The notes beneath the pieces were generated by a model. The model was not told the origin of the DNA and made no database searches. It saw nothing but the letters and a program-made list of their open reading frames with translations. The position numbers were made by a program, and so were the translations under genes. Below, one piece after another: positions 36,001 to 60,000 of a DNA stretch of 64,000 nucleotides. Position 1 is the first letter of the stretch, and each line of letters starts with the position of its first letter. The stretch spans positions 216,949-280,948 of the forward strand of contig JBGAJA010000002.1 in assembly GCA_044225175.1 (NCBI GenBank), written 5' to 3'. The DNA is from Candidatus Omnitrophota bacterium. Its GTDB lineage: Bacteria; Omnitrophota; Gorgyraeia; Zapsychrales; Fredricksoniimonadaceae.

Positions 36001-39000
36001 CTGCTTGAAGATGCTCACAATAGTCCATTACAAAAGATTGCCCTACAAATGGAACGACTCGTAAATGTTCACCCCTCAGATCCTTCTTATTTATCTTATG
36101 ACATGTTTGTGATGCTAGAAAAAGATGCCGAGAATTACTATCAACTCAAAACAGCCGCTATCGAACACCATCAAGGTCTCATTGACGAAGTCTCAACAGA
36201 TTTAAATAAAGCTGCACAAAGGCTGTATGAACTTAAGGGCCTACTTTTAGAGTTAAAAGATGTTTCTTTAATCAGAGAAATTGAAAATAAGATTGAAGGA
36301 ATTAGAGAGACTTTAGGAGATTTAATTTTTAGCAAAGCACTCGATGAAGAGGCTATGCACACAGAAATGAAAAAGAGGACTGCGCAGCTTATAGAGACAA
36401 TTGAGCTATGGATTTCAATGGTCAAGAGATTAAGAACACTAACAGAAATGATTCCAGAACTAACTAAGCCCATTAGAAGGGCCCATGTCTTATTGATTAA
36501 TAGGGTAGATATTGAAAGCCCGGCTGCTCATGCCATTAATGATGCTTATCAAACAGCTGTGTTTGTTGGACCTTTGTATCAGTTATTGTTTAAAGAACAT
36601 ATAGAAGCTTCTGTCTTTGAAACAAAATTAGCTGACATGGAAGGACGATTGTCGCAAGTGCCGGATCAAATTACCAAGTCCCTTGAGCCTGCGACCCAGA
36701 AGATTAATGAACTCCTGGCGGACAGTCTTATGGAAGTACAAAAGCTGATTGAAGCATTAGAACAATGGTGCAAAACAAATTTATGTGTCTATAGAGGATG
36801 GCATGATGAGCGTCCTTTAGAAAGAATGTTGGATAAATTTGCATCTACAAAAAAGATGGTGGAAGTACTCAGAGAACAGATTACAACTAACGGAGCAATG
36901 GTTAATAGGGGAAATGCTGCACCTACAGAAAATCCTACAACCGTTGCTTGTGACTTTAATGATTTCAGACTTTTATCCGATGCGGCGTATGAATTGATGG
37001 CATTCGAAGAAAGATTCTGGCTGGACCAATTGCGCGGGTGGGTCGATAGACATGGGGCTGAACTGGTTTCTTTAGTCGATAAACCGATTTTATCAAAAGG
37101 ATACACATGGCAATCGATCATTCTAAGAGACGCGTTTAATCAAGTAAGGGAGATTGAAATTGATTTCGTTCCAAATACTAATAGAGCGGAACACAATTAT
37201 TTGGATTTAGATAAAGATCTTGTTACTGCTTCAGAAAGATTAGTAAGCGAGTATAGGGAAATCTATAATGGCCTGACCCGAGTTTATCGTCAAATTAAAG
37301 ATCCATTAGCCATTACTGATATTCTTCCAGTCCTAGGTCCAATTGCAGGTTTCTATATTCAGATATTTCTGAAGGAACAAGATACGCCAATCTTTGATGT
37401 GACGGTACTCCTCCAGAACATTTTTTCAGCTAATTTTTATAAGCAATCAGAAGTAAGAAAAGTAACTGAAGGAGCTCATGATACGAGCTGGCAGGCAACG
37501 TTAGCATTCATTGCCCCTCTTAATTTTGTGAAACCTATTGCCCCATGGCCACAAGGCATGATCATTGGACAGAATAAGTTGGAAAGTAAAAAAGAGAAAC
37601 AGCCAGCCTCACTCAGCGATTCACGAGTTTTGCCTGCACTGTCTCAACTGGTTTCCTATCCTCACGCAAGAGGAAGCACACTTCAAATGGTATTAGCTCT
37701 GATTGTCGCAGGTGTCATCGTCGTTGGCTTGGGAATTCTGGCATGGCCGCTGGCGAAAGTTCATTGGAAAGGTTTGCCAGATATTTCAAAGATGCCTAAT
37801 TTAAAAATAATTATAGAAATCTTTTCTGAAGTCATTCTCATTACAGCGGTCATTGTCAGCATGCTCATTGCAAGCACAGATACCAGGGCAGATTGGTGGA
37901 AAAGACAAAAAATTAGAGTGCGTCCATGGCTATTGTATGCGCAGAGCATTGAACAAAGAGTATTTAAGGTAATTAAAACGATAGTCGATTCCCGCTTCAC
38001 AAGACCTATCCTCAAGATTTTGCTTTATGCAGGAAGCCTTGGCCTTTTGACCATAGTATTCAAATCCATAGAAGTGGCACTGGGCATCACAGCAAAGGGC
38101 ATAAGTTCTCAGGTTTATTTGTTCTGTGCCACAATCTTAGGCATCATTATTATGATGGCATGGAACATACGTAGGGCCTTGCGTATTCATCAACAGAACA
38201 TACAAGCCGTTGGAGAAGAGCTTTCAAGCTATGATAGTTTATGGTGGATGGCTGGCCTGGGGACGGCCGGATTGATGGCACTCCAGGGCTTTTTTATATT
38301 TATTCTCCCTGGATCTTTTAAACAGCTCTTTGCAATAGAGCATTCGGTTGCCAATAGTTTGCTTATCATGCATACAGCTTTTAGTCTGGTTTTTTTGATG
38401 GCTATTGGTGTGGCCCAACACAAACGTTTAGAACAGTACATCACCCCAAGGCAGGTGGGTGTGGCGGTTTTGAAATTGATCATGGCTTTAAGCATAATTT
38501 ATCCAATGGTTCAACAGCCATGGAATCGTTTTGCCATGATGGTAGTTCCTGCCATCATCATGGTGGTATGGCTTGGCTTGAGCTCCATGACCACGTTATG
38601 GAAAGCCCATGTTCAAAGAAAGACTGTATGGAAAGATAACACGTATCCATGGGCCTTAGGGCAGGTGATCTTGACAAGCACCTTCATGGTCCCGGGGTAT
38701 ATCATTGGGGGTTGTACAGACATTGAGACATTTTTATATAAGCAATTTGATGTATCGATGCCATGGATGGCATGGTCATTTGTAGTGCTTGGAATGATCG
38801 TTGTCAGTTCGACAGTCATCTTTATTCCTTACATATTAGATCTGGCCAAATTCAGCTACCATAGGATAGGAGACTCTTTGGCTGATCACATCAGTCATCA
38901 GCCTCGTGTAGCGATGGTCTACGGTCATGTGATATTAGGTATCATTTATTTGTATTTATGGACTATGCGCCCAAGTCCATTGCCCATGTTTGGTATGAGG

Positions 39001-42000
39001 GACTATGTGTCTAAAAGCTTTTCTGTGAGTTCCACAGCCTTCCCTCTAGGGATTAGGCAGGCCATTGTGGCTGTATTTATCATGGGTGTTGGGGGGGCAG
39101 TACTATGGCCATTGATATTAGCCCTCGTGCGCGTGTGGCAAACCCCATTTGTCCAAAGGCACATCCACAAAATTTTCGTTGTTGTGGTTGCTATCATCAC
39201 CATTGTGTTGATGACAGGTTGCAGGAGCCAAGAGTATTCTAAGAAAGAGAAACTATTAGCAGATCGGATCCTAGAGAAACACTTCATGGAGCAGGCCATT
39301 GAAAAAAAGAACCTTACAATTGCTACGGAAGTCCAACCAGTCGAAAACGATCCTCAATTCTCACCATCAAATGTAGATTTTTTGAAAAAAACCCAAGAGC
39401 TATTGAATCGCCAAACCCTTAACCGCATGCCCGATGGGTCTCAATATAAAACAGGTAAACCAAGGGTAACTGCATCAGTTGATTTCATCATTGAGCCTGT
39501 TGGGCTAGAGGATGCTTCGGAGAATACAAAAGCAAAACAAGCTCCAATTATTCATACACAAAAAGTTTTCAGCCAATTTAAAGTAAGCGTAGTGACTATA
39601 TCTAAAGAATTAAGAAAAGTTCAAGAATCTACATCCCAGATCATTAGACAATCGTTCCTATCTTGGAAATCCCAACTCCAAAACCAAATCGGCCAACCAC
39701 GTCAAGAAGTTGTTTTACAGGTGATACCTGAACAATCAAGGATTTCATTATATGTGCAGATGTATTTTTACGTGGCACCTACGCTCAAAATGGTCGTAGG
39801 AATGATTCTTGCAGCTTGGGACACAGTATTCCGGCGGGCACCCATAGGTGTTGTGAGTGTGACAAGTTTGGCAACATCCTCCAGTAACTCAGAAAATTCC
39901 CTAAACATATTTTGGTCAGCTGTTAGTTTATCAAGCGTTTTTTATTTAGGTGTTCTTGTCCTATCTACGGTTATTCTCATCACTACTCTTTCCAAGGGAT
40001 TAAATTCTAAAAATGTTCGAGGTGTTAATAAGGACTATGCAGGATTGCGTCAGCATAAATCGGTTCTCTTCACATTTTTAGCTGTGACAGCTGGCCTACT
40101 TTTTGTTTTTCGTCATGGGATCAATAACTATTTAGCATGGACCAGTAAGCTCGATCAAATGTTCTTAGCAAATACAGCGGATTGGATTCTATTTGGAAAG
40201 GTGTTTGGTATTGGGGCTTTACAGGGATACGGAACGGGCATCATTGGGGCTGCTTTGGCGCAGACCATTAAGAAAAAAAGCAACATTAGACAATTTGAAT
40301 GGAAGAACATTTTTGTTGATGTCGGGATGTCTCAATTACTTGGGGGAATTCTTTTAAAAGCATGGTTTTTCATTGTAGGACCATTAACGGCACGGGCAGG
40401 GGACTATGATTTTCTTGTTGGGTTCTGGGCTTTTGTAACATTGTTTATTCTTCTTTATATTGTTCTTGTCATTGGCAGCATGCTTGTTTTATCTAATATA
40501 GGTATTCCTGGAAAGAACCCGCTGACAGAAGCTCGAAAAGTCCTTTTTAATTGCGAAAACTTTGCCGTAACCTTTTATAGAAATATTCTTTGTTTTGGCG
40601 TGCTTGTGGATTTGGCATTCTTCATTGTTTTTCCTTTGCTTGTCAAAAATAATGTCTTTGGCTTTGCCTCATATACCCTTCAGTTAAACAATATTCAATC
40701 CATCGCCAGTCTGCTGGTCGGCATTCTTTACGCAATGATTCTGGCTTTGTTTGAAATTAATCAAAATATAATTCAACCAAAAAGAAGTGAAGTTGTCGCC
40801 GTAAAGAATTCTCAACCAGGGTCACCCACAATGGATGTGTTGAAGTTGTTTTCAGGGGTTGTTGTTCTTGGGGGTATTGGAACGTTTGTGCTGTGTGTGC
40901 CTATGCCATCTTTGACCAGCTCAGGTCTTGTGGGAGTCATTTTTGTTGTAATGATGAAATGTGTTTCAGTATTAGCTGCATTCTTGATCAGTGTATTTTT
41001 TATATCACGGCTGATAAATCTAATTGCTCGTTGGAAGCACAGATTTCAGGAAGAAGTTTTCTTAAAAGACATGCAAGAAAAGAAAATCTTCTGGAAACTA
41101 GATGAAACCTCACTGTCATCGACAGACATTCCATGTGAAACAATCCAATTTGGTCCATTTCAAGAGCGTATTTCAAGATTGCCTTTGGAAGAATTAAAGA
41201 GTCGATTTATTAGGGATGCTGAGATCTTATTGGAATCAGATAAAGTCTCTGACAATGAGTTCTTTAGTGCAGTCATGGATTTGCTTGAATTTAAAAAGCG
41301 CATGCGGGACCCTAGATATTTACAGGCTTTCTTTGAAACCTCACATCAATGGTATTCACCTTATCAACTGGGAATTATTTATCGCGTTTTCATGTCTTTT
41401 ATCATTGTGTCAAAACATTATGCCCGTCGAAATTTAAAATATGAATTCTATGATTTAAAGAACCGTATACGAAGCATATTGGCGGCTAATTTAATGTTAA
41501 AACGTGAGTTTATTGATGGTGAAGAGAGACCTTGGGACAATGAAATAGATTTAGAACAACCAGAAAGCATTTGGCCGTTAGTCTGGGGGATGACTTTTAA
41601 TGGTCTTGGAGTCATTGAGTTTAGCTTAAAGAAAAAAGCTTCTCCTAAGTGGGACCCAGAATTCTTGTACCGATGGAGTCTTAGCTCTGGAATGGTCCAT
41701 TTACCCGTTATAATCCAAGTATCTCAAGAAGAAAGCTTAAGAGGAGACATAACAGCTTTTAGAGAATCATTTTATGTTTTTATTACACGATATTTTGACG
41801 ATGCTGCCCAGGCAGTGTTTTATTTTAGTTTATGGTCTATAGGTCTCATCCAAAGCGCCTTCTCGAAAATTCAGGCCCTAAAACAAAATAAGAAAACAAG
41901 CCAGATTCATCAGTCATGGAAGACCCGAACGACAACGAGAGGATGGGCACTGACAAAGCTGCTTGGCACTATTGTCGGCATTAGTATGCTGGCGGTTGCA

Positions 42001-45000
42001 GTAGTTTTATTCTCTTCGCAGCGTCCGCAAGGCTTCAATAATCGCCCGACACCGCATAGTCAAACAGCAACTCAATCATCTAACAGTGAGTCGTACAAGG
42101 ATTGGAGGCTGTATGAAAGTAAGCCAACCCTAGAAAGTGTTAAAGAGATATTTGCATTAGCAGCCGATTTCTTAAGAAAGCACAATGACCCCAACATGAA
42201 TCTTGTAGATGAATATTTGGAGTATGTCCGGTCTGCTCGCGCAACAGATGGCATATATCTAGGTAAGATATTTGATCCGGACAAGAATGATATTCAAATT
42301 TATATTAATCCAGAAGCAGTTCAGCAGAGTTTTGTGGAAGCGCAAGATCATCAATCGGAATCCTTATTTGTTCAAAATATAGTTTCTCAAGTCGAACGTG
42401 AAGCCATAGGCCTTAGATTTTATAAAGATTTTCCTGAAGTATTGAAAATCAGCGCTCCTGTTGAAGAGGTCATGCTGCACGGAAGTGAAATTCTCCCAAA
42501 TATCGAAGCTTTACAGGAATTTTCTTATGACAATCGAGACATTATTCGAGGTGCTGTAACTCTAAAGTATGCTTTGGAATTCTTTGAACTGACCCACAAA
42601 TTAGATATGCTTGCTTGGGCAGAAAAGCAAGGCTTCTATTCTCCTGTCCAGACAGAGGAGAGTCATACATTTTATGACCATTATGTCATGAGGGACCAGA
42701 AGAAGGACTTATTTGCCCGCCAAACCAGTCAATATTTCAAAGAGGACATAGAGCTTCTATTAAGAAGGAAGAACTCTTTTGACCAAAGTAATTTTATCTT
42801 AATGGAATATGCTTTAGCCCAGCAGATGAGGTATGAAAAGACAAATGGCCAGGAAGGCTTCAATCCTCATTTAGAACAAGTATTACTAGGCAATGCAAAA
42901 GAAACAGAGCAGGATAAAAAAGATTTAAGAAAAGCCTGGGATGAAATTTATCCGGAAGTTCAAAACTTAGTAGATCAATGGAATGCAAAGATCAATCAAC
43001 CTACACCCAAACCCTCAGGTCATGGAATGTTAATGAACTTTACAGGCATGAGGTCCTGGATATTTGGATTAGGCTTGATCATTGTACTGTCTTTGTGGGT
43101 ATTTGGCACTCGGGGAGCATTGTTTAGGGAGTCAGACTTCAAGCCAATCAAAGTTTTATTAAGTGCAGCAGTTACACCAGGTTTTTTATTAATTATCTTA
43201 ACTACAACCGCTTCTTTCATTGCTTCCTTCTTAGGCTTTCAACGCGCCTATCTTGCAATTTTTATCATCCCAGGCGTAATGTATTTTTTACCTAAAATCT
43301 ATTTCTTTATGATGGGATATTATGTCCTAAAAGGTGAGGACCAAGGAGACATCAGAATTAGGTTTAGAAAACTAAATAAGGATCAATACCAACCGCAAAG
43401 CCCCAATAAGTTAGTTTCTTTAGCCATAAAAGATACCCATCTTAGAAACAGAAGCAGGATGACTGTGGTTGTTCCAAGCAGTATGGCGACGCAAGCAGAG
43501 TTGGAGACCATTCCAGAGGCCATATCTTCAGGACTAAAAGTCAAAGTTGTGCCTCATCGTCCAGGTTTATTAAAATGGAGTGTGTTTGGTTTGATAACAG
43601 CGTTCTTTTTAACTCTAGGCTCCTATATGTATTATCAAGGTCAATTATGGAGTGTGCTTCAACTGCGGATTCTGCAAGCCCAGACACAAGTTTACATGGA
43701 TGGTAGAGTTGAAGATAATTTGCGAAGACAAATCAGATACGAGTTTAAAGCCTACAGATCATTGAATTCTTCAAATAGAGAAGGGCAAGAACAAATCACA
43801 TTAATTAAGAATATATTAAGACTCAACGACGTATATTTAATTTGCAATATCTTGGCAGAGATTTCTTCTTCTGACCGTCGTCATTATCAAAAAGAACTGG
43901 AATGTTTACTGGATGATGATCGACATACGGCAAATACCTCTTTGCTTCATCTACGCATAAGAGACTTGGCTTTACAAAAAATGGCATATAACCAAACTGC
44001 AGCAGCGGTCATTATTGCTCATCTTCCAGAATGGAATGACCCTCAAAAAGATTGGCATACCCGTTTATTGGCTTTCCATATCCTATCAACGACCATGTCC
44101 GCCACGGATACTCAAACCATCGAAATTATGGCAGGTATGATTAATACAGGGTTAAAAGAAAACTATCCAGAAGGTTATATAACCCAAGGTCGAAATCTTA
44201 ATTTTAATGGCCATCCGTATCTTCCTGTGAATGAACCCTCCGTCATACTCTTAGAGGCGGTATTACATAAGAATCCGCAGCTTTTATATGATTCATCCAA
44301 TGATGTTCCTGAGGAATTAAAGGGAATCTGGAGGATTAATCGTCAGGACGATAGCTTACAGCCATACATTGTTCAATCCATATCCCGGCTTTTCGAACAT
44401 TTTCTAAAAGAAGGAAATGATCGAGCTATCAATGCTCTTGTAGATATTCTCAAAGGCCGTCAAGACCTAGTTAACGCTATGCTTGAGAACATTCAAGACC
44501 AGAAGAACCAAAGAATTATCAGAGAGAAATTTGATGCTACACAAGAAAAGGCCGCTAGGGTGGGTATGGCATTTATGTCTGCCAGTGGCGCACCTATTCT
44601 TCTAGCACAGGCCCCTTCCACCAATGCCTTCACTGCTTTTTCTTGGCTAGATATAGTTGCTGCTATAGGAGCCGTGATGTTATTGGGCCTCATCATTAAA
44701 GTCTTGTATGAAAACTATCACCTGCGGACGGTCAAAGTCGATGCATTTCAATTCAGTGCCTATATGGGTGAAAGTATAAGTGAAAGCGTGATTTTAATGA
44801 TGGTAGGGATTGTTTTATGGCTGATTAATGTGTCTCAACTATTACTGGTTTTCTTAGGCATCTTAAACAGTATTTTATTGGGTAATCTATTTCCTCTCAT
44901 TCAGGCTTATGGCGTGATATTAGGAGGTTCTTTTGTGGGACGAATCATTATTACCTGGTTCGAATACCAAATTAAACATACTACTGGAATTGATAAATTA

Positions 45001-48000
45001 TTTGCGATGTATAGAGAACAAGGGATTATTTCAGCCCAAGACAGACCGCAGGCATTTGTGTATTCAAGAAACTTTACAAAAGTCCGATTATATTTAAATA
45101 ACCCAAGCTTTCTCTTTAAAGTTTTTGCATTTCTTTCTGTCCCACCTTTATATGTAGGAACGATTAGATGTAAGAAAGAAGAACCGGCTGTTAGGTTGAT
45201 GGATCCAACAGATAAACTCAGCATGAGACGGGGAGCAAGTCCTTCTCTATTTATAGTTTTCATGGCAGGAATATTTTCTGTTGGAATGATGGGCACGATC
45301 GGAGTAATCATTATATGTTCGCTGATTCTAGCTGGGATTGGGATTTTGATAGTCAAGAGGATCAAAAGAAATGTTCTTCCCGCGCAAGGTTCCAACATCC
45401 TAGTATTTAATCCCCACGGAATCAATCCTATCGGCTTAGAGTTTACGGATTGGCTCATTAAAATCAAAAAGGATAGAAGCACAGTTAGCTTAAGCCCTGG
45501 CCATTTGGGTCTTTTTGATTTGGGCGGACTTGTTGTCCGAAGACCAGGAAGGTTTGAAAGTTTCAAAAAGATTAAGTTTATAACTCACAAATTTCTTCCC
45601 AAGCCTCAACTCCAGGGGTTGACAGGAAAGATGACAAGTAAGCCTGAGGAAATCGTCTATTTTTCAAGTTTGACAGGAGAAGAGCAAGAAGAGAGAGCCA
45701 TTGATATATTTGCGGATATTGCCAATATTGCTTATCTAGCTGACATTGCCAAGAGATTTGGGATTAAGAAATTCTATTATTATGTTCCTGTCATCAAACA
45801 ATCAACATTGTTGACAAGGCAAGTGATAGCTTTAGCTGCCGGTATTATTAAACATGATCGTTCTGTCCATATTGTTGAATTTAATCGTCTAGAAAAGTCC
45901 TTGGCGTCCCAAGGCTATCATCTTAAGCCAGTCACCAAAAAAAGGTATCCTGCCGATATAAAACATGATTCTGAAAAGGAACGTGTATTTGATTTCTTGG
46001 CAAGGATATCTACGATCGGATTAGATGAGCGCTTAGTCCAGCGTATCACTAAGGCACTTTTGGATGCAAAGATTAAAGAAGACTTTGGCTCAAGACATGC
46101 TCTTAATAAAGATAAGATCAAATGGTTTTCCCTTGAAAGCTATTTACCTGTCTTTGCTTTTTTAAAGAAGGCAGACCAAAACCTCCTTGATCTTCTTTTC
46201 AAACGCTGGATGCAATTCCATCAAAGTCATGGCAACCTCTTTGCAGAAACATCCCGTGGGTTCGATCTGCATAATATTCTAGATAAATCTGTGTTTAGCT
46301 GGATCAGTAAAGACCCTCCAGCAAACTCTTTTGTCTATCTTTATAAAGGGATCGACAGTGCAAGCAGGTATCAAATCCGTCCTCTCAGAGAACAGTCTCC
46401 TGTAAGTATGGATGATATGAAGTTTGTTGATGAAAGGGCAAAAGTAAAGAAAGCCATGGCCTTGATTGAACGAAGGATTAGGACAAAGATGAGGGAAGTC
46501 AATCGAATTGAAGGAGACAATGAAAGGCAAAGTAGGTTAAGAAGATACTATGGTGCCCATCATTTAATCTTGGATCAATTGACGATTATTGGAATTGATA
46601 GTCCTTTGCCATTGGTCTTTTGTGACATGGACCGTATGGTGGCCCGCATCATTCACTTAGGCCGTCATCGTTTAGTCACATATTTTCCTCTTAAGTTTAT
46701 TCAAAACAGCTCTATTGAAGAACTAGCAGACATGATTTATTACAGCATTGATTGGTTGACCACATTTCATAGACATAGACAAGATCAGCATTTCTTTGAA
46801 CAAACAGGAATAAAACCATCCGGTCATATGGATCCTATTATTTGGGACCCAGAACCCATTGCTGACATTAGATTACAGGAAATACTAAGTAAGCGAGGGG
46901 AAGTTTTTTATGGTCCTAAGAAAAGCAATCGATTTGGTGTTTCTTTTGAGCACCTCCAGGCTAAGATCTATAGCTTAATGGAAGACCATTTGAAGCAAAG
47001 ATACACATTGTTGCGCCGCCTCGTGGAACAATATAAGGAATCTCAAAATGGCATGCAGAGATATTTCCTTGAATTCGCTCAAGAAGGTCTATTCAGCGAT
47101 CAATTCCAGAATAGATCCAAATCAATCGCTACTCAAAATCGAGATGTTGCCAATGCTCTTTTAGGGCTAGGATATGTGACAACCGCAGATCGTTTGTACA
47201 CCAATGCACTGGCCATTGATAATTATTTAGTGATGGGAGCTAATGGTATCCAACCCACCGATACGCTTATCAGACATTTGTTTCACTTTTTGTATCACGG
47301 ACAATGGCAGAAATGTCTCAATACGTTTGAAACGTTATATTGGGGAAAGAATTATCTTGTCCGTTTTAATGGGCAGATTGTGAAAATCAACCTTCGCTGT
47401 CCTCCCACAAGTATTAATGGAGTACCCGTGGATGAAAAAATGAGGGAAGACTGGTATGCGCAGCTGGGGTATTCGATCTTTAGTAATAGAGATATTTTGG
47501 ATACTTTCTTAAGAAAGGCATATGACGTTTTAGACACATTTGGTTATATTTACTCGGATGATCCAAAACAATTGAAATTGATGGATGATTTTAAAATACA
47601 GTTACTCGAAAGTATTAAGCGTTGGATGTTATTAGCGCAAAGAGGGGAACTGGTGGGTGATAAACCTACAGAATCCGATCCTAATGTCACTATCATGCCC
47701 CCCCCTGTTGTTAAAAGATTACACGATCTTAAGAATGGTAAATCAAAAAAGGTATCCCATAGAAGAGGTCATGTATTGACCCCATGGTTGATGGGAAGTT
47801 TAATTGCTGCATTGGTTTTAGTGATTGTCCGTGCCGTTGTTCAAAAACGACGTTTATTAAACCATTTGAATCTTGCTCGTAATGAAGCTCTCCTGCGTGA
47901 ACAATTAGTTTTCAAATTACGCTCTCAAATCAGCCAAGAAGAAGCCTTCAAGTTAGGACCTATCTTAAAATCCTGGAATTTCTGGGATGATCCATCACCT

Positions 48001-51000
48001 TTAGAACACCATGTGTATTGGTGGAACTACTCTATGCGAGACGCTGTACTAGTGTTTTTACATGGAGATCTAGTTGGAGCATATTCTTTTAGATATGACA
48101 CAGCGGATTCCCCTGAAGATGCGTATGGGGAAGGTATTTTTGTGGTGGATTATTTAAGAGAGATGGGCATAGGGCGAATGCTAAGATGGCATCTTTTAAA
48201 TTATTTGAAAGAAAATAGCATTAAATATTTCAATATCCGAAGACCAAGACAAACTTTGGAAGCACAAGGTTTTCACTCCGCTTTAATTAAAGAATTAAAC
48301 TCTCATGAACGAGGTGTTAATTATGATGCGGACGCCCAGCCTCAGGAAATCAAAGTCCTTTTAGAACAATATGCTTTAAGGGATGTGTCGACTATACAAC
48401 CATATTTCCCTCCACGAAAACAATATAAAGATAACCCCATGGAACGTGTAATTCTCAGCACTCCGTCGTTTTATCATGAAGCCGTGGCCAGAGAATTTGC
48501 CCAAAGCCGTCGTTATCCAGCTTGGATTGCCAGTGCTGCAGTTTGCAACCATCCTTATATTTACCTGCCCTTGGTCCAAAAGATGTATGAGCGATTGGGA
48601 AATTTACGAGGTCGGACAGTGGCTGAGCTTGGCTGTGGTTCCGCCGTGGGAGTTGAAATCTTTAGAAGGATTGCGGATGCCTATGTGGTTGGGTTTGACT
48701 CTTATGAACCCTTTGTCAATTTTGCTCAATCCCATGGTTTGCCCGTCGTCCATAGTGACTTGATCTCTATGCCCGCGGATTCCGAAGAAAAATTTGAAGT
48801 AACATTCTCAGCTCGTCTTTTGGATGTGTTGTGTGTTTTTATCGATGGTGAACCAATAGAACTATTGCATCCACAGAAATTACGAACGCTTAAAACGATT
48901 GAGCGCATGACCAAAGGAAATGGACTCAGCATCCATCAAACCGAATACCCGATTCCTTTTAGCGATTCTGAAATAGAATCTACAGGTTTTCGCATCGAAG
49001 AAATCAATGAAGAACGAACATTAATGGTCCTTTACAAGCCTCTTGTTTCTACACACTGCATATTTATTTGTTCTTGTGGGATGTTAGTGTTAGCTGGAAT
49101 CACCCAAGATACTTGGCTGGCCAAGATTTCTCTTCTAGTCATGGTCGTGGGAGGGTTATTCGCCTATGTATTTTCAGCCCCCTCATCTTTCCAAACACCT
49201 ACTTCTGTTCAAGATTCAACAGAGCAGTTAATCAATGATTTAAATGGATTTAATGCAGAAAACTATTGGCAGCAAGCCAAAGATCTCCTCCAGCGACAAG
49301 AAATTTCATCAGAGACGAATAAAATACAAAAAATATATAAATCTATTCTAAGAGTCATGGTCATCATGGGAGTGGGTATTGGATTTGCTTTTTTATACGG
49401 AGGAATAATGATTTTTGTTGGTCCAATACCTGCACATAAGACAGCCTATATTCTTTTTACTCTTCTTTATGCGGCATTGATGGTTGTCCTTATTTCTAGG
49501 TTCTATATATGGATGGACATATGGGAATCCAGCATATCTCGATACCCTAATAATAAATTAAAAGCAATTCAAGAGCATAATCTTATCGTGATTAGAGAGT
49601 TGCAAGGTCGATTTGAAATAATCAGTACATTTTTGGATAATCCAAAAAACAGAGAGGTTTTAGAAGCCTTTAGGCTTTTATTGCAACGTGTAAATTTGAT
49701 CATTCGGCAGGATAAAGAATATGGAACTGCAACGATTTCAGAATACATAAGAAACATGCTGTCACAAGTAGAGGCTTTAGAAATAGTAATCCAAACTAAA
49801 CGTGCATGTGGCAAGGGAAATGATCGAAAGAGCGGGGTAGACCCTCAACCTTCGGAGTTTGTCAAACAGATGCATCAAGCATTAAATTCAATAGGCGCCA
49901 CAGTCCAGCTTAGTGATTTGAATGAAAGTCCTGAGGTCATTAGTTTTGTTGGAAGGCTTTTGTTGGACTACTTGGCAAATCTTTCAAAATACAGCGCTCT
50001 ACCCCCTGATTTAGTAAAATATGGCACGCTGCGTACAGTTTTGACTACACTTTTTAATCATTCCTCTGACTACCCAGATTTTCAGGATCTTCTCAAAGAA
50101 TTAAAGCAGTTAATCGATTCTCATTTAAAATCCATCAGCTTTTTAAACCTTTTTGGGTTACCTAGAGAAGAATTACTCAGAATCGTAAAATTGAGTATTT
50201 CTACCCATGAGCTTCGAAAAGAACTAGGGGTCCAGGATATGGAGGAAACAAAGCTTTGGCAAATGTTTGCTGGGATTATTCAAGAAATTCTAAGAGATAC
50301 CTTTCCAGTGCTGTATGTCACCAATAAGCAATTAAAAGATTTGTTACTTCAGATACAGGAGAACAAACCTCTAGAGCAACCGGTTGCCTTTGACACCCGC
50401 CTAGAGAATTTGCTGAAAGATCGCTTGAGTCCTTTGACTATCTTGAATACAAGTTTCCTAAGGACCATTCGTGAAACACTAGTCCAATATGGTTATCTTC
50501 CTGAGCCATATGGCGTGGTAAATATGCTTAGAACGAACTGTTTTTATAAGCTTCCACAATTGGGGAATAGTAATCAGCAAAAATTGTTACGGTCATTAGA
50601 AGGAAAAGGATTTGGAAAGATACGTATTTCATTCAAATTTCAAAATCAACCGGTTAATAACATTGGTCTTCTTTGGGAGAAATTAGAAAACATACAAAAC
50701 ATTTGGCTCGTTTGGGTGGGCCAAGATGAACAAGGGGACATTTATCATGCCCCAAGTGCGGAGGAATTAAATGAGATTCCTACCGATAGACTGATTTTAT
50801 TAAAAGATGTACCCAATAAAGAAAAAGCATGGGTAGGTGCAAAATCAGAGGAAAAACCATTATTACCTCCTCAAGGCAGAGCAGTAGCAGTGTCCGAGGA
50901 CGTTGTCAAAATCGGCTTTGAAATGGAAGTTCCTGAGCGATTAAAGAAGGTTTGGGAAGCTATTCGAGATCTCTTGGTCCAAAACCCTAGACGAGATATT

Positions 51001-54000
51001 ACAGTGCAATTGATTTCCCAGAGAATGACAGAGTTGGGAGAGTCAATGACTGAAGAAGCCCTTCAACTGTGGCTGCATCAATCGAAGGGAGCTCCAGCCG
51101 TAGCCCAAGTTGTTTCACTCATTAATTCCATCAAAGACAAAGAAGGACGTTTAAGACTCTTTATTGCTCTCAACGAAGAGTTTCTGCAATTATCGGATTC
51201 ACACATCACAAGTCTTTTGGCTGATAGTGAGGATGCAACCCTATCAATGGACAGTCTGCGTAAGCAAATAAAGGCCAAGCTTTCAAATCACCCTATTACT
51301 TCGGAAGACAAGAAGTTAGCAAAGATATTTCTGAGATTGAGCTGGGCGGCCAGATTGGAATTTATGGGGCATAACAATAACGGAGCTGTATCAGGTATAT
51401 CTGCAACTAAAGATCCCTTGGCGCTTCTTCGCAGTGAAGTAGAAGTCTTACAAAGCAGTGGATTAAATGATTCTGGAAGACTAATGAATGTCCTCCATAG
51501 GCTTATTTCTTTGGTTGGCGAGAATAGTGTCATCGACATGATTGGAACGGTAGCGGAATTATTAATCAAAGAATATGAAGAACATGATTTTGACAGCTTA
51601 ATTGATGTTTTAAGGAAGGCCCATGGAAAAACTGCGGGTAAAATCATTGCTTTGATTCTCCTGAGAGGGACAGCTTTGAATCAAATACGCATGATAGACA
51701 CCCTTAAAGAATCGAACTCTCAAATTAATGGCTTGGTCTTTTTGGTAGGGAAATTAAGAGAATTACAGAGTTATATTGAGCTTAAGTCATCTAAGTTTAT
51801 TGTAAAGAATGAGGGACATGCAGATTGTACAAGACCGGGGGTATATAAATTTGGACAAACAACTGCTCAACAGGCAGAAAGCCTTTTTGGTAGAGCTCAT
51901 CGTGCGGCAGAGATAGGTCATAAGGAAAACATTGCAGAAGCTAAGAGTATTGAAGATGCTTTGATTAATCGAGGTCTTGAAGATATTAAGAAGATATTGA
52001 AATATGTTCAGGTCATTTTAGAGACAATCGTTGATCAAGAAGCAAGGGTAACACAGACATCTTTAGTTTTGGAGTCATATATTGGATTTGCTGTTTTGTT
52101 TCAGAAATTAGAACGTCCCCTTCAAGAAATCAATGATATTTTGAAAATTGCCTTTGAACTTATTAACCATTCGCATCACAGCTTGTATCAATCAAGTGCA
52201 AACCCCATTTTTAACCAACATACGGATCTTGCAAGCAAGGCTTTTGAAGATGATGGACCTTTAGCAAAAGAGATAGTCATTCGTTGTTATTTGCTAACGC
52301 AAAAATATACATTCTTGCCTGTGGAACAAAAGATATTGGGAAGTTTATTGATTAAGGCCGGATTGACCCAGGAAGCTTTACAGTTAATGGCAGTTATATC
52401 TCCAACACCGCAGCCTGAAGACCCAAGATCTATTATTAGAAGAAAAATAGGAAAACTTAAGAGTGCCTTGGAAGAAATAGATTTAAGAAATTTCTCTACC
52501 CCAGACACGTTTGATGCGCATGTTCATTCCTTAGTTCAAAAATTATTGTCAGATGTTCATTGGAACCCGGGGTTTGATGAGGCTAAAGAATTTTCTACTT
52601 GGCTAGAGGAATTTCAGCGCCAAGGACGGGAACTAATTAGAAAGCGCAATGACCACCATAAGACCGGAAAAATCCAAGAATTAATCAGAAGTGGCCAAGA
52701 AAGAATAGATAGGGCTTCCAGAAGAACTCAGAACATGGATGAGTTTATCACAATCGTGGATGCTATCAGGGCAGAGTTCGTTTCAGACCTAGAACGCACT
52801 GAGATCCAAGAATTTCTACAAAAGATCCCAACTATTAAAGTCGATAAAGCTATCACAGAAAGCCGAAGAAGAATCCAAGAAATTCGTCCTGGAAGATTTA
52901 AGAGTCCGGTTGAATTTGAACAAGCAGTTAGAGGAAGAGTTTTACCTTTTGTTGGTGCTAATTTGGAACATCCTCATGTCATTATATTTACTGGGGAAGT
53001 TGAGCAATACATCATTCAAGGAAAAGATAGGATCACAACTCATCAAGAGACGGCAAAGCGTTTACATTTAGAAGGACAAATTAGAGCTTCTTCTCAAAGG
53101 GCTAGAAATATTAATCCTAAGAATTTTGAATTTATAGCACAGTATGAAAGAAAAATGATTTATGTCATATCGTCGCGGGTCCGAGAAGAATCTCAGATTA
53201 AAGAATTAATTCAAAAGCTTTTAGAACAAGCGAGACCCCATTTCGAAGAGATCTATCGGGCTAAACAACAGAAACAAATTAGAAATACTCATGTTTTGCA
53301 AGAAACCAGCCGGCGTCTGTTAAATGCTGCCCGGGAGAATATAATTCGGGCCAGAGAAAGACTGGAATCTTTGGCCCAGAAACTGGAAGAAAGAAAAAGT
53401 CATCAAGAGAAAGTGTCTTTGGCATTTCAACGCCTGCATGAGAATGCTTCAAAGATTATCGAGAATAAATTGATGAATACTATGGAGTCGATGGATGTGC
53501 TTAAGGCCGCTATGGAAGAAGGTATTTCTGAGGAAGTCCGTATACTTCCCGCATTTGCAGATGTATCCAACCAAAAAATGCAAGAGATCAAAGACAAAGT
53601 TGTCTCAGACACATTGATTGTCATTGCAAATTTTGATCCTAGAAGATATATCAACACAGATGATTATCAAAAGGCCTTAGAAGCAAATGTTCCAAAGATT
53701 GTTTGGGACGTTCCTCATTTGTACGCAGCATGGGAAGAAAAATTAGAAAATGGAGCACGGTTAATTGAACAAAACACCAAAGGAACCATAGAAAGTGTTT
53801 TAAGATTTGTATGGAAAGATTTAATTAGTGGAAATTTCAGAGGTGAACCAAGGAGCTTTATAGAAAACAAACTTCAATTATTAATGTGGCATCCAGATAC
53901 TCAAAGACTAATCGGGGAGACTTTAGAGAGCTATTACACACGTCAAGGGCAGCAAACTCAGCCTAATTCCCAAGCTCCACCTTTTGAACAAATTGAAGAA

Positions 54001-57000
54001 ATATCTGTAACTTCACCTGCTGAACAACTACCTCAAGAGACCAGCCGAGATCCAGATCAATCGATAGATGAAGCTATCATCTGTGACAAAATTAAAGAGA
54101 TGGAATCGCTAAGAAAAATTGCTAAAAACCATCGAGATATTGAATTTATTAAAGGAATGTTACGAGATCTTACAGCACAGACCAGTTCAATGTCTCTTTC
54201 TAAGAAAACAAGAAAGCTCATTCATATGCTTCGAAAAAAAATTGATTCAGCTCGAGGGATTCCTGGTCAACAACATCCAAGTAGGAATGATGTGGATTAT
54301 GAGATATGGCGCATTGACACTGAAATCCCCGCCAGCGTAAGCATCATTAGGTTAGATGCACAAGATAAGTTTGCCCAAGGGGCAATTAAGGCGATTGCAT
54401 GGCTTAGGACTAATGGATTTATCGCGATGGCAGAAGTATTGGAACAGATATTGAAAGAAAATAATGTGGAGCGAGGCCCCTATAAAGGTTTCTTAGCAAC
54501 GACCCATTCTGTAGAAGCTCCTCGAGGCAATAGAGAGCTTTTCATCATGAAAATAAAATTATCAGATGCAGAAGAATATGCTCAATACTTAACTGTGGAT
54601 GAAATCGCCGCGAGTTTGATTCATGAAGTAGGTGCCCTTCCTCAGTTTGGTTTCTCGGATAGAGTCAATACCCAACGCCATCAAGATTTCTTAATGGAAA
54701 TTCGTCAAGGACGCTCTTTTTCTCTTTCACGAGCTTCAAGGAAAGAAGAATTACTCAAGAGCCTGCACTTCTTGTGGAGATATGTGGTTGCAGATAATGA
54801 AGCAGCGATCCAAAATGTTTTAAGTCAATGGAAAGAAAAGGGCTACAAAGTTGGGACATTCTGGCTGACAGGACGTGATGCAACGATGAACAAAGGCCAT
54901 GAAGGGACATTCTTTGCACATCCTAATAAGATCCTTCATGATTTAATCGTTTCAACATTGGATGCCCATTATGATCCAGCTCAAAAACCTTTAGCTCATT
55001 TTGCGCTTGCCATTGATGAGGTATTACGACGACCCAGAAATGTAAAATCCAGTTTTGCCTTGTGTGTTCTTGTGTTCGATGATCATGATGTGATCGTAGC
55101 TGTGATTGACAGTGAACAAGGCCTTAATATTAGCGATGAAATACAAAAAGAACGATCCAATGATGTTATTCAAAGTGCAGGACTAGGTATGGAACGGTTT
55201 TTAGAGCCCCATAGTAATAACGTGACAACGAGAATATCTTCTCAACTTCAAGTCTGGAAATCAGATCAAAATCGAACCTTCAACCGTTCTCAACAACAGC
55301 ACAATTTAATCTCTCAAGGTGTGTTATGGGACATGCAGCTTCTTTATGATTCTTTAATATTAAAAGTTGCTCTTACGCCACTGATCTTAGGATTTGGTAT
55401 TGCATGGATTGGTTTTGTTAAACTCATAAGCCTTAAGAGTCTTCTTATATCCATAGGTGGCGCTCTTTTTGTCCGTGCCGGAGGTGGAGTAGAACACCTG
55501 CATTTGTCTGCATCACTTCCTTCTATATTTACAATCGTTGTAATTGCTTTTGCTGCTTTTATGCTCATGGTCCTACCAGGCGACCAAGCCCCCGGGGCAA
55601 AACTTAAAAACAAACAAAACACTTTAAACAACCTCTTTGCAAAATCGAAACGTGATCTTGAGGCAATTTCAATGGATGATCCAAAGGAATTGATCAAAGA
55701 CCAGAATTGCTTAAAGATATTCCAAGAATTCATAGAAAAGATCCGATGGTCTTATTTATTGAGCTTAGCAAGAAAACCAGAAAACAAGGCCGCCCACTTT
55801 GAAGTCAACCAATACATGGCAGAATTAGTTTTAGAGATGCGAAAGGCTTTGATTAGTAGGTATCAAGAAGTGTTAAATAATTTAGATACTCAAAATTCAC
55901 TAGATAAAGAAGCTAGAAGGTCGATAGCCAGTGCCCTCGAATTGCAGATAAGAAAGCAAATGCATTTGATTGTGCCTGAACACATCGAGATTGCCGTTGC
56001 AGGAGATGAGGTGTTCTTCTTTTATAAAAAGATCATGGTTCGAGTATATTCAAAAGAGAAAGAACATCATCAAGAGCTGATTGAGCTTTTATTTGAGAAT
56101 AACAAGATTGAGTCTATTGCTGATGCAACGGATGCGATCAATGGGTATCAAATAAAAGTTTATGACATAGACCTTCAAATTAAAGTTGGGCTGCAATTAT
56201 TCTTAAAAACAAAGCTAGAAAGTTTCGAACAACAGATTTTAGATCAGTTGGAAAAATCTCAAAGTGAACCTAGGACAGAATCACCAGATCGGCATGATTT
56301 TGCTATCCAGGGATTTGCCTCGCTGCTTTTGACCAATCAAAATCTCAGAGTATTCTTTAAGAAAGCCTTAGGCAAATATTTTAAGCCATTGTTCCAGTGC
56401 ACCTTAAACATGAAAAGTATTTCACCTGAATTAAGAAAGAAAGCCTTAGCTGCAATTGGTGCTTATTTTCTTTTAAAGCCAGAGCAAGTACGACTTTCAG
56501 ATATGGATTCTGCAGAACATCTAGTATTTGATGGCTTTGCAGGGCAGGATGTTCCAGGACGATGGCAAGCCATGCCAGGACATGAAAAGGATAAATTGCC
56601 TGTTATCATCGTGATTACCCCTCAGATACCTGAAGGATTAACACAAACTATCCAAAGACATTTTAAGACCCATATTTTATATCTGAACATCACAGCAGTG
56701 ACTACCCAAGGAGTTGAATACAATAGCCTGGGGCACATAGAAAGTACTAATCTTCAATATGTGTTTAATCAATTAAAGCAACGTTTAGATGTTTTAAAAG
56801 ATGACAATGTTGTTATTGCTTCTGGACAATCAGCGGCATCTGCTCTTTTATGCATAAGAAAGGCATGGGACATTCTTCCTATGGCAATGAGATACAATGA
56901 TAGTTCGCTTATCTTGGATAATTTTATTGATGACTATCATACGTATCTAAGAAGAAAATTAAGAGAACTTGATGGGCTCATAGATGAAGAAACTGCAACG

Positions 57001-60000
57001 GACGCAATGTCTATAGTTCAAGAAGTTATTTGGGCCAATAGGCCAAACCAAACACTAAAAAGAGTTAGATTAAAGAGTTCTACCCCATTTAGAAACGTAC
57101 AAAGAACGGACATCCTTTGGTCTCCTCAACATTTAATTGGAGCTGAATCGTGGTCCACCCCTGCTTTATTTGCTTTTGATCAAAGAATGTATGAAGAAAA
57201 TCATAATGATTATCGAAGGTTATTATTAAGAATATTGAATTTAGATAAGTATCAGAATTCAAGAGGTCTTATCCATGCCGTCCTTGAATATCAAAGTACA
57301 CAAGAGCCAGGAGTTAATAACTATAAAAGCCGCATTCTAGGTTTTCTTAATCGGAATAATGTCCTTGGTCGCTACAGAATAACTGCGGTTCCACCTGTAG
57401 AACAAAACATAAAGGTGTATTCTAGGAAAGACTTTAAAAGCCTTCCAACGATGTTACCACCCCAGGAGCCTACCAAGAAACGAGAGCATTGGGACACAAG
57501 CTGGCCTGAACCAACGGCCGTCGAAATAGAGGATGCCAAAGCAGTTCTAAAAAAATTATCAAATCAACCACGACCAGATTGGGGTACCAAGTTTATCCAA
57601 AGTCCCTATGGAGATCTAAAATCATCTAAATCAAGAATATTAAGAGCTCTCTATTTTGAATATCCGGATATTGCAGCAGCTATTCTAGCTAGTGCCGGCG
57701 TTAATGTGCATGGAAACCTAAACAAGATCCTTTGCCCCAATAGAGATGAGGAGCGCATTGAATATATTCTTCTCATTAATCTGTTTAACATGTCTTTAAC
57801 TTTTTGCCTTCTGGATCCTCCAACGGTTATCAAGGATCCCAATAAGACTACAGGTGAATCCTTAAATATTAAGTTTGATGTCAGAGGCATGGCAGGAGTT
57901 TTTGAACACCTTCCTTCACACATTGCCTCAAGTATTTTGTACCGTGTTTCAGAACCTAATTTTATCCTGCTTGTTAAAAGAACGATTGCTCATGTTATTA
58001 AAAAACAAGGAATTACAACTGGGGCAATAGAGAGATTACTTTTTGCAATGCCGCAATCTAAAAGAGATCTGATTTGGGAGAAGTTACTGCCAAAAGAAAG
58101 AGAATTCTTTGGGGATCAGCCTTCTTTACCTGCCCCTGTGCATCATACAGCCCGTGTTGATAAGCCAATCCCACGCGTTGCAGGAAAAGGAGAGGGAAGG
58201 CTGGTCGTAATACGCTCCGAGCATCCTACAGTAGATGAAATACGAAATATTCAACCAGGTTCGATTGTAGCGGTTGAATATTTACCTACCTCAGACACCC
58301 ATGTAGGAACATTTCAAGGTATTATCACATTTCGTCCAGAAGGAAAAACATGCCACGCCCAAGCTCAAGCCAAGCAATGGGAAATTCCCCATGCTTTAAT
58401 ACCTGGCCCAGAATTTTTGATCGAATGGGAGGGCAGATTTATTCGGATGACTGTTGAAAGAGACAAGGTCAGTTTTGCAGGAATTAAAGAGCATGCGATC
58501 AAAGACAAAGAGGTTTCAACGGCTATTGTCTTACCTACTGTGGACCTTTCCCCAGAAGCTCCATTAATACTTCCTTCTGGAGACATCAGACTTTCTCGAC
58601 CTACGTTGATGGGTTATAAGCCAGCATCCCTTAATCTTTTTTCGCAGTATCCTATCCAATTATCTAATACATCTATTACAGCAAGTGTTGAGCAGGGCAT
58701 GGGTCTGACATTTAAAATGTTTCTTTATTTATTAGAGAAAGAAAAGAATAAAGATACCTTTTGGAAATATAGAGATGACGTTATTAAATCTAAGAATGAT
58801 AAGGATTTACAAATAGCTTTGGAAACTCTAAGAAACTTTATCGAAAGGGCCTTTATTTCTTTACATTATGAGCCTGAATTTGAAGAGCTTTTCAAAGATC
58901 TAATTGCCATGGTAGAAAGTTCTGGGGCATTTATTCGCCTGGCAACTAACGCAGAAAGTTTGCCGGATTTTCCTGGATTTGGATCAGGTAAATATCTGAC
59001 TATTGCACATGTTACCTCTCGAGAGGAGCTTTGGGAGGCAATCCCAAAAGTCTATGCCTCTCTTTGGAGCTGGGAAGCCTATATGGAAAGACAACAGCGG
59101 GGTGTGGACCAGTCCAAAGTATTTTCTGCTATATGGGTCGTGCCTTCACAGCCTTCTATCTATGCCGTCAATATCCACACCTCAGACGTATATCTGCAAG
59201 ACCCCAATAGAATGGTCATTGAAATAGTTTCCGGTCAAGGTCAAAGCCTGGTCAGCAGTGATGAGGAATTTGCAGGACTGCCGACATTGATTGTGTTAAA
59301 CAAGGCAACAGGTGAAATTATTGAACAAAGCCCTGGAACAAAACAAAATAAGATCATTCTAAATGACAAGGGAGGCACTCAAAGAGTACCCATTGAGGAA
59401 ACAGAGGAATTTCTAAACTTAAATGATGCTCCTGAATTAATCAAATCACTTTGGGAAATAGGAATGGCAGCAGAAGGATTCTTTAGAAAGCAATTAGGAG
59501 ATGATCTGAGTCACCAAGAAATAGAAGCTGCGATCATTAAGAAAGAAGGACGTTGGCATATTCCTTTATTGCAGACCCGCTCTGCTGGCAATATTAACCA
59601 TGTTTCTGCTATGCATGCCTGGTTATTTATACCCATTGTTCCTATGATGATGTCCACAATAGGTATGGACGGTTCCATGATCATCCCTGCAACTCTGCTT
59701 GTGCTGGGTGTTTTGATGATTTCGACTTTCCGTCGATGGTTTTCTTATAAAAAGCTCATCGAAATGACCCATACCATGTGGTTTAAAGTTTCTTCCATGC
59801 TGGCAAGCATTACCCTCCTTGGCTGGATCAATTTAGAATTCGTAGCCCCACAATTTCCCAAAGACATATCTCTTCCTTTAAAAGTCTTACTTAATTCTTT
59901 GATTTTTATGGTCTTTACACTTGATTTGGATTTTTTTGCCCAGCGTATGTCGAAACAGGGAGTTTTGTTCAAACAAACTCTTGCAATAATTCCGACTGGA

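Follow-up and report, generated by a model that had tools for sequence, protein, structure and literature searches.

A class I SAM-methyltransferase domain and a probable, divergent second one in a giant reading frame of a Candidatus Omnitrophota bacterium

Do two methyltransferase-like motif series within one very long reading frame mark real S-adenosylmethionine (SAM)-dependent methyltransferase domains, and is the second a decayed copy of the first? The question arises from a 64,000-nt stretch of contig JBGAJA010000002.1 from a Candidatus Omnitrophota bacterium (hereafter the window), in which a first-pass annotation had pointed to a class I methyltransferase motif at one site (here MT1) and to a degenerate, possibly inactive duplicate further downstream (here MT2). 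The peptide strings quoted for MT1 and MT2 were each recovered once, in frame +1 and at the positions given. All amino acid (aa) numbers below are those of the frame +1 translation of the window, and the coordinates of the features are collected in Table 1.

MT1 is a genuine class I SAM-methyltransferase domain of the Methyltransf_11 type. An exhaustive search using phmmer (HMMER) over 1.84 billion representatives returned 28 homologues, 22 of which span the methyltransferase half and were trimmed to give a family alignment covering that half (A1). The best homologue, P0001 (E 3.5e-30, 40% identity), corresponds to NCBI MDD2680015.1 from Candidatus Omnitrophota, a protein that also contains CheR and Peptidase_M23 domains and whose MT1-equivalent region scored 40 bits on Methyltransf_11. 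Most of the methyltransferase-half homologues are proteins of 1,000-5,500 aa, and the family also includes a free-standing gene of 247 aa (P0009). Matches to Pfam were obtained for the majority of A1 members, with Methyltransf_23, Methyltransf_11 and Methyltransf_25 recognized in 17, 16 and 15 of the 22 sequences, respectively, and best E values of 1e-8 to 8e-10 for Methyltransf_11/23. A search of the PDB with the A1 profile retrieved solved class I SAM methyltransferases with a best E value of 8.6e-12; among the 60 PDB matches listed, 59 were methyltransferases and the other was an unnamed “hypothetical protein”. When the hidden Markov model (HMM) of the MT1 family was run over the whole frame, MT1 scored 212 bits and the sole other match, a weak one (iE 0.044), was MT2. 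The same two sites were found with a relaxed motif-I pattern in the 21,333 residues, as compared to 0.25 sites expected in shuffled sequences, the probability of two or more being 0.03.

The predicted structure agrees with this assignment. An AlphaFold2 model of MT1, generated with A1 as the multiple sequence alignment, reached a pLDDT of 94 and a pTM of 0.91. Three helices at its N terminus lead into the beta-alpha pattern of the seven-strand class I fold, C-terminal antiparallel hairpin included, with strands at query residues 57–61, 79–84, 100–102, 116–122, 155–164, 182–186 and 192–197 and a beta-hairpin insert after strand 4. Foldseek comparison of the model with the PDB gave 1,167 matches at E<=1e-3 (best E 1.7e-10), the best 50 of these being methyltransferase folds throughout, such as Bud23, BelI, TehB-like, NNMT, CypM, UbiG, PmtA and SpnF. 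The class I, seven-strand Rossmann-like nature first proposed for this site is therefore borne out by homologues, family profile, model and Foldseek alike, the A1 members matching Methyltransf_11/23 and the predicted fold having the seven strands.

Motifs I, post-I, II and III follow one another in MT1 in the class I order, behind an N-terminal lid of three helices (Table 1). In motif I, the residues E16209, G16211 and G16213 occupy family columns with Glu in 21/22, Gly in 21/22 and Gly in 14/22 sequences, respectively. An acid at the end of strand 2 provides the ribose hydroxyl contact in class I enzymes; the corresponding D16233 column contains Glu in 20 and Asp in two of the 22 members and is preceded by an invariant glycine. 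The D16253 column, at the end of strand 3, is occupied by Asn, Thr, Asp or Glu. Motif II has the family consensus F-D-x-T-F-S, with Thr in 20/22 members, and the S-I-H of motif III is conserved (Ser in 20/22, His in 17/22), H16312 being a candidate catalytic or substrate-binding residue. Closer examination of A1 revealed three longer family-specific blocks, F-D-x-T-F-S-x-x-L-D, L-T-x-x-G-G-x-S-I-H (strand 5) and P-F-T-x-x-E-x-x-x-A-G-F.

MT1 has kept the residues that contact SAM in this class (E16209, G16211, G16213, D16233 and D16253), and the domain is probably SAM-binding and catalytically active. Strands 1, 2 and 3 would hold SAM at their C-terminal ends by E16209 together with the G-C-G loop, by D16233 and by D16253, respectively, and the methyl group would be passed to an O- or N-nucleophile held beneath the lid. 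The acceptor may be a small molecule, a lipid head-group, a sugar or the giant protein itself; since the nearest solved relatives comprise small-molecule, lipid-head-group and peptide methyltransferases, they do not narrow this choice.

Some observations weigh against MT1 as a methyltransferase. On its own, the MT1 sequence falls just short of the Pfam Methyltransf_11 gathering score (20.7 or 19.4 bits, according to the boundaries used, against 21.2). The loop glycines, described as intact in the first-pass annotation, do satisfy the literal pattern G-x-G-x-x-x-G, but the third glycine of the canonical G-x-G-x-G is replaced by Ala in MT1, a position at which 19 of the 22 family members have Gly. 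The presence of SpnF, a methyltransferase-like cyclase, among the structural matches also shows that the fold need not mean methyl transfer. MT1 alone scored 19.3 bits on Methyltransf_25 (cut-off 27) and gave weak matches only, to NCBIfam methyltransferases and PDB sequences, in single-sequence searches, and a query joining MT1 to the GNAT acetyltransferase domain upstream of it found no relatives in a word-index search or in genome and metagenome related-locus scans. MT1 could be pictured as a SAM-binding or methyltransferase-fold module that transfers no methyl group, acting either as a regulatory sensor of SAM or as an enzyme of the SpnF type that does not methylate, a reading to which SpnF and other non-canonical methyltransferase-fold proteins among the structural matches and the Ala in the loop lend some weight. 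It is nevertheless quite improbable, given that the SAM-contact motifs are conserved throughout the 22 family members, that the family includes a free-standing gene, that most members pass generic methyltransferase HMMs and that the conserved polar residues D16275 and H16312, near the expected methyl-acceptor site, suggest catalysis.

The second site, MT2, is probably an independent and much more divergent methyltransferase-fold domain, as indicated by a set of sub-threshold or low-confidence matches. It lies within a loop of ~780–800 aa between transmembrane (TM)-like segments at aa 20070 and 20865. In an hhalign comparison with A1, motif I, post-I, the strand-3 acid and strand 4 of MT2 were aligned in register (E 1e-4, probability 58%) over 81 columns covering motifs I to II only; the score of 34.1 compared with 13.1 +/- 2.4 for shuffled sequences (maximum 22.9), and none of 200 shuffles reached it. 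By this alignment with MT1, acids are kept at three SAM-contact positions of MT2, namely E20558, D20588 and the Asp in GGYDEV, and MT2 may therefore still bind SAM. The four weak matches obtained with NCBIfam were all to methyltransferases (PRK14968 scoring 17.2 against a cut-off of 243), and Methyltransf_24, PCMT and MetW also matched the stretch below their Pfam cut-offs. A weak Pfam match to tubulin-tyrosine ligase (ATP-grasp; E 0.029, sub-cut-off) was seen at nt 62020–62200 on the forward strand (aa ~20674–20734), overlapping the C-terminal end of MT2 and reaching slightly beyond it.

Counting against a methyltransferase fold at MT2 are the best Pfam scores, which remain well below the cut-offs (Methyltransf_12, 18.4 against 30, E 0.0037; Methyltransf_23, 17 against 27, E 0.0051), and the lack of homologues in word-index searches with the domain or the whole loop and in a metagenome locus scan anchored on PPDK_N. 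The MT2 model has a pLDDT of 57, falling below 50 between strands 2 and 4, and a Foldseek search with this low-confidence model was uninformative, giving nothing at E<=1e-3. Among PDB sequences, the MT2 core was best matched by a fatty-acid-synthase ketoreductase domain, at a non-significant E value of 0.057. For the second site, then, the proposed methyltransferase identity probably holds at the level of the fold and does not extend to the curated HMM thresholds.

How MT2 is to be read depends largely on its motif I loop, G-A-N-H-G, which departs from the canonical G-x-G-x-G. The glycines had been described as lost; this is true of the central one, now Asn, and two of the three are still in place. 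A catalytically dead remnant with a structural or scaffolding role, perhaps no longer binding SAM because the central glycine is Asn, is the rival to which most weight should be given, yet it remains unlikely. This loop, the low HMM scores, the poorly modelled region between strands 2 and 4 and the lack of homologues in the searches above, hence of any conservation backing a functional site, all speak for it. However, the three SAM-contact acids are kept in register with MT1, and the ~170-aa stretch is still open and foldable within the 64-kb frame. The central glycine is also missing from members of the MT1 family itself (G-A-R-C-G in P0005 and P0006, G-S-A-A-G in P0008), and catechol O-methyltransferase, whose loop is G-A-Y-C-G, is an active enzyme, so that G-A-N-H-G is in itself no evidence of inactivity. 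Less probable again is that MT2 has some other Rossmann-type nucleotide-binding fold, such as that of the short-chain dehydrogenases/reductases, or a chance motif: VGANHGI could mimic TGxxxGxG and FDVIFWN the NNAG strand, the ketoreductase match would fit, no curated HMM threshold was reached, and the top global Foldseek matches of the weak model were GNAT folds (TM-score ~0.27), while the register of the motifs with A1 favours the methyltransferase fold. Very improbable, finally, is the origin suggested by the first-pass annotation, an internal duplication of MT1 followed by degeneration. Both sites are class I-like, they are the only two of the kind in the frame and hhalign places them in register, but no BLASTP similarity links MT1 to MT2, the hhalign resemblance is confined to motifs common to all class I enzymes, and MT2 has none of the N-terminal lid motifs, F-D-x-T-F-S, L-T-x-x-G-G-x-S-I-H or A-G-F of the MT1 family; MT1 is moreover closer to relatives in other organisms (40% identity) than to anything in its own protein. 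Repeated methyltransferase modules were rejected on the same ground, BLAST of MT1, MT2 and the GNAT domain against the whole frame having shown no further copies. An independent, divergent methyltransferase-fold domain remains the preferred reading of MT2.

The sequence around MT1 indicates a membrane-bound setting. MT1 begins ~70 residues downstream of the GNAT domain, both domains sharing one loop of ~400 aa that is bounded by hydrophobic TM-like segments (Table 1). The junction between the last strand of MT1 and the segment that follows reads LMVLYKPL, then VSTHCIFICSCGMLVLAGI; because the strand continues directly into the hydrophobic segment, the domain lies at the surface of the membrane. 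As both SAM and acetyl-CoA are cofactors of the cytoplasm, the GNAT-MT1 pair would be expected to work at that surface on its cytoplasmic side. This placement has points against it: crude hydropathy and positive-inside (K/R) counts around the segment at aa 15925 gave contradictory sidedness, and in published TMHMM-based analyses, certain enzyme domains of these giants are placed extracellularly. In a separate part of the frame, five hydrophobic segments were seen at nt 59674–60264 on the forward strand (aa 19892–20088), between the PPDK_N loop and the MT2 loop; with an odd number, two domains that depend on cofactors would face opposite sides of the membrane, and one of the five is probably mis-called or a re-entrant loop.

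The GNAT-like motif noted earlier at 47980–48240 proved to belong to a domain that passes the Acetyltransf_1 cut-off (Table 1), with an acetyl-CoA-binding motif A, R-E-M-G-I-G, located within nt 48133–48207 and fitting (Q/R)-x-x-G-x-(G/A). Homologues of this region were found in P0023, P0025, P0026 and P0028, and two large proteins, P0007 and P0021, contain four tandem copies each of a homologous GNAT domain. A conserved GNAT-MT1 pairing was considered and rejected, since homologues have either one domain or the other and the sole protein with both has them far apart; because the adjacency is not conserved, a functional coupling of the two is a guess.

MT1 itself behaves as an autonomous module, as judged from the free-standing P0009 and from P0001 and P0002, in which an MT1-type module of exactly 220 aa is set between two SSSPV linkers. 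Such linker peptides recur between the enzyme modules of the relatives, SSSP[VIL]/ASSP[VIL] occurring 14 times in P0002 and six times in P0001, and RSELR recurs 10 times in P0007; they could be processing sites. No recurring linker motif, SSSPV and RSELR included, was found in the protein of the window. Another member of the MT1 family, P0004 (3,506 aa), is found on a contig of chromosome size (ENA ERZ25039459 contig_27029, 2.7 Mb), where it adjoins two further very large genes, of 2,314 and 2,226 aa, close to the rpsU-dnaG-rpoD operon.

Both sites are part of one uninterrupted frame. From nt 1 to 63999, frame +1 is free of stop codons, whereas each of the other five frames has 927–1838, which identifies frame +1 as the coding frame; at the MT1 and MT2 sites, the alternative strands and frames contain short chance open reading frames (ORFs) only (<=95 aa). 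Just two short ORFs, both antisense, appear in the ORF listing of the window, as the real ORF exceeds the window at both ends; since the stop-free frame continues beyond both of these, the window lies wholly inside one giant gene. A hydropathy scan of the whole frame gave ~80 strongly hydrophobic 19-residue TM-like segments, arranged in clusters, and the amino acid composition is ordinary except for a very low Cys content (0.2%). The cumulative GC skew climbs almost monotonically from ~8 kb to the end of the window and the AT skew is mostly positive, a pattern consistent with one long leading-strand transcription unit. Taken together, the window likely encodes an inner part of a multi-enzyme protein of the Omnitrophota kind, giant in size (>21,333 aa) and anchored in the membrane by many passes, with MT1 and MT2 among its modules. 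Searches of genome, metagenome and protein collections did not recover the gene itself, and its best relatives there are 40–54% identical.

Table 1. Features of the giant reading frame. Positions are nucleotides of the window; aa numbers are those of the frame +1 translation.
Feature	Residues (aa)	Position (nt)	Strand	Evidence or remark
Giant single reading frame, 21,333 codons, running off both window ends		1..63999	+	stop-free
Glucan_synthase PF02364 (FKS/callose-synthase type, GT48)		~15598-16299	+	Pfam, E 2.4e-50, 172 bits
HEAT_2 repeat		27610-27774	+	Pfam, E 6e-8
Hydrophobic TM-like segment, start of the ~400-aa loop with GNAT and MT1	15925-15943	47773..47829	+	Kyte-Doolittle 19-residue mean 2.42, K/R-rich flanks
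GNAT acetyltransferase domain	15993-16076	47977..48228	+	Acetyltransf_1, 25.2 bits (cut-off 20.7), E 2.2e-5
MT1, complete class I SAM-dependent methyltransferase domain	16150-16348	48448..49044	+	homologues, profile, predicted model
MT1 N-terminal three-helix lid, preceding the seven-strand core		48448-48612	+	
MT1 motif I, VAELGCGSAVG, SAM-binding loop after strand 1	16207-16217	48619..48651	+	aligns with motif I of ToxA 5jdz
MT1 post-I, VVGFD, acidic D16233 ending strand 2		48685..48699	+	aligns with VVGVD of ToxA
MT1 strand 3 end, VVHSD, D16253 at the usual adenine-contact position		48745..48759	+	model strand residues 100-102
MT1 motif II, strand 4, FEVTFSA		48793..48813	+	model strand residues 116-122
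MT1 motif III, strand 5, GLSIHQT		48922..48942	+	model strand residues 155-164
Two hydrophobic TM-like segments directly after the last strand of MT1	~16349-16367, 16373-16391	49045..49173	+	hydropathy scans
PPDK_N, ATP-grasp nucleotide-binding domain, pyruvate phosphate dikinase/PEP synthase type		58672..59589	+	PF01326, 58.2 bits (cut-off 27), E 1.1e-15
MT2, probable divergent class I methyltransferase-fold domain	~20534-20705	61600..62115	+	
MT2 motif I, VLEVGANHG (E20558, G20560, N20562, G20564)		61666..61692	+	in register with MT1-family motif I
MT2 post-I, TTDDS, D20588 aligned to D16233 of MT1		61756..61770	+	hhalign
MT2 motif II, strand 4, FDVIFW then NPSW		61873..61902	+	aligned to FEVTFS of MT1; model strand residues 107-111

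In addition to the methyltransferase sites, Pfam scans covering the whole of frame +1 revealed several other domains. The suggestion that the protein carries several enzymatic modules was upheld by the GNAT, PPDK_N and glucan synthase domains, which are accompanied by HEAT repeats. That one of them is a phosphoenolpyruvate (PEP)-utilising module was correct as far as the ATP-grasp PPDK_N domain is concerned, and did not extend to a PEP-mobile or C-terminal PEP-utilising domain, none being found in the window. The glucan synthase module is accompanied by a cluster of TM segments (aa 5412–5887), and belongs to a family, the FKS-type 1,3-beta-glucan synthases, that is regarded as mainly eukaryotic. 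It was the only query in the related-locus scans to find relatives, which, at 37–54% identity, were located on three contigs of metagenome-assembled genomes (MAGs; Omnitrophota, “Planctomycetales” and unclassified), the best being that of a Candidatus Omnitrophota MAG (54%). All three loci are wholly open frames and stop short of the methyltransferase regions. Between nt 28801 and 43200 on the forward strand, 4,800 consecutive residues showed no Pfam match at E<=0.1.

The flagged motifs are in this way resolved into two SAM-methyltransferase modules, the first solid and the second probable, which are placed as tailoring-type enzyme domains between the membrane helices of a giant protein of the Omnitrophota type. 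Methyltransferase domains in this kind of giant gene are real but ordinary, and another one in such a protein is by itself no surprise to specialists; the giant frame, a known phenomenon, together with the FKS-type glucan synthase is more striking. MT1 defines a compact, well-modelled subfamily of ~200 aa, found also as a free-standing gene and, within other giants, as modules set between linkers; it thereby offers a tractable biochemical handle on otherwise intractable proteins. A more far-reaching outcome, though hardly a likely one, would be that MT2 is the founder of an unsampled methyltransferase-fold family (G-A-N-H-G, N-P-S-W), that GNAT and MT1 form a cassette acetylating and methylating a membrane-proximal substrate, or both. 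The substrate of such a cassette might be a lipid head-group or the nascent glucan from the FKS-type synthase in the same polypeptide, and the cassette would then represent a new kind of envelope-tailoring assembly line within one giant protein.

Compared with known class I enzymes of the Methyltransf_11/_23/_25 type, MT1 shares the fold, the motif order, E-x-G-x-G, the acid after strand 2 and the C-terminal hairpin. The nearest solved examples are the phosphoethanolamine N-methyltransferases 5wp5/5wp4, LahSB (6uak), ToxA (5jdz), Bud23 (4qtu) and a TehB-like protein (3cgg). MT1 shares only 12–19% aa identity with any solved structure; it differs from these enzymes in its family-specific blocks and the beta-hairpin insert after strand 4, and from soluble class I enzymes in being embedded in a membrane protein of >21,000 aa. 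MT2 resembles catechol O-methyltransferase in having a non-glycine residue at the central loop position; the corresponding HMM, Methyltransf_3, gave no match on MT2. Its F-D-V-I-F-W-N-P-S-W is in register with F-D-x-I-x-S-N-P-P-Y of the PrmC/HemK and RsmC amino-methyltransferases, but unlike the (D/N)PP(Y/F/W) enzymes it has Ser in place of the second proline (N-P-S-W). With the MTS and N6_MTase HMMs giving no match on MT2 even at E<=10, an N-P-P-Y-type amino-methyltransferase identity was set aside and is retained as a lead only.

At the level of the whole protein, polyketide synthase and nonribosomal peptide synthetase megasynthases provide one parallel, in that a class I methyltransferase domain sits beside other catalytic domains inside a very large multi-enzyme polypeptide. 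Unlike in those systems, the host protein here is a multi-pass membrane protein, and nowhere did the window give a match to carrier-protein, ketosynthase, condensation or adenylation domains. A closer parallel is given by the giant proteins of Omnitrophota termed “Archaeovorins” by West-Roberts et al. (2023), in which glycosyl transferases, methyltransferases, GNAT, PPDK_N and HEAT repeats are found consistently and the methyltransferases are assigned no role (10.1101/2023.11.21.568195). In giants of this kind, no domain type is reported more often than HEAT repeats; PPDK_N and HEAT_2 are among the most frequent giant-protein domains (10.1101/2023.11.21.568195; 10.64898/2026.06.07.730766), and PF08241 and PF00583 were found in 137 and 93, respectively, of 916 long proteins in a 2026 preprint, which favours TM helices anchoring cytoplasmic enzyme modules (10.64898/2026.06.07.730766). 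The modules described here are in keeping with these accounts. Glucan synthase is mentioned in neither paper (10.1101/2023.11.21.568195; 10.64898/2026.06.07.730766). The nearest relatives of the present frame are an Omnitrophota MAG for the glucan synthase (54%) and MDD2680015.1 for MT1 (40%), with one relative labelled Planctomycetales; the window itself contains no marker genes. Differences from the Archaeovorin type and from the homologues were also evident, as GT5, GT1, NUDIX, peptidase, glycoside hydrolase and SecA-like domains were not seen within these 64 kb and the inter-module linkers of the homologues are missing. In common with the Archaeovorin-type giants, this frame combines a giant single ORF and many TM segments with HEAT_2, methyltransferase, GNAT and PPDK_N domains; the glycosyl transferase present here is of the GT48 type, an FKS-type glucan synthase.

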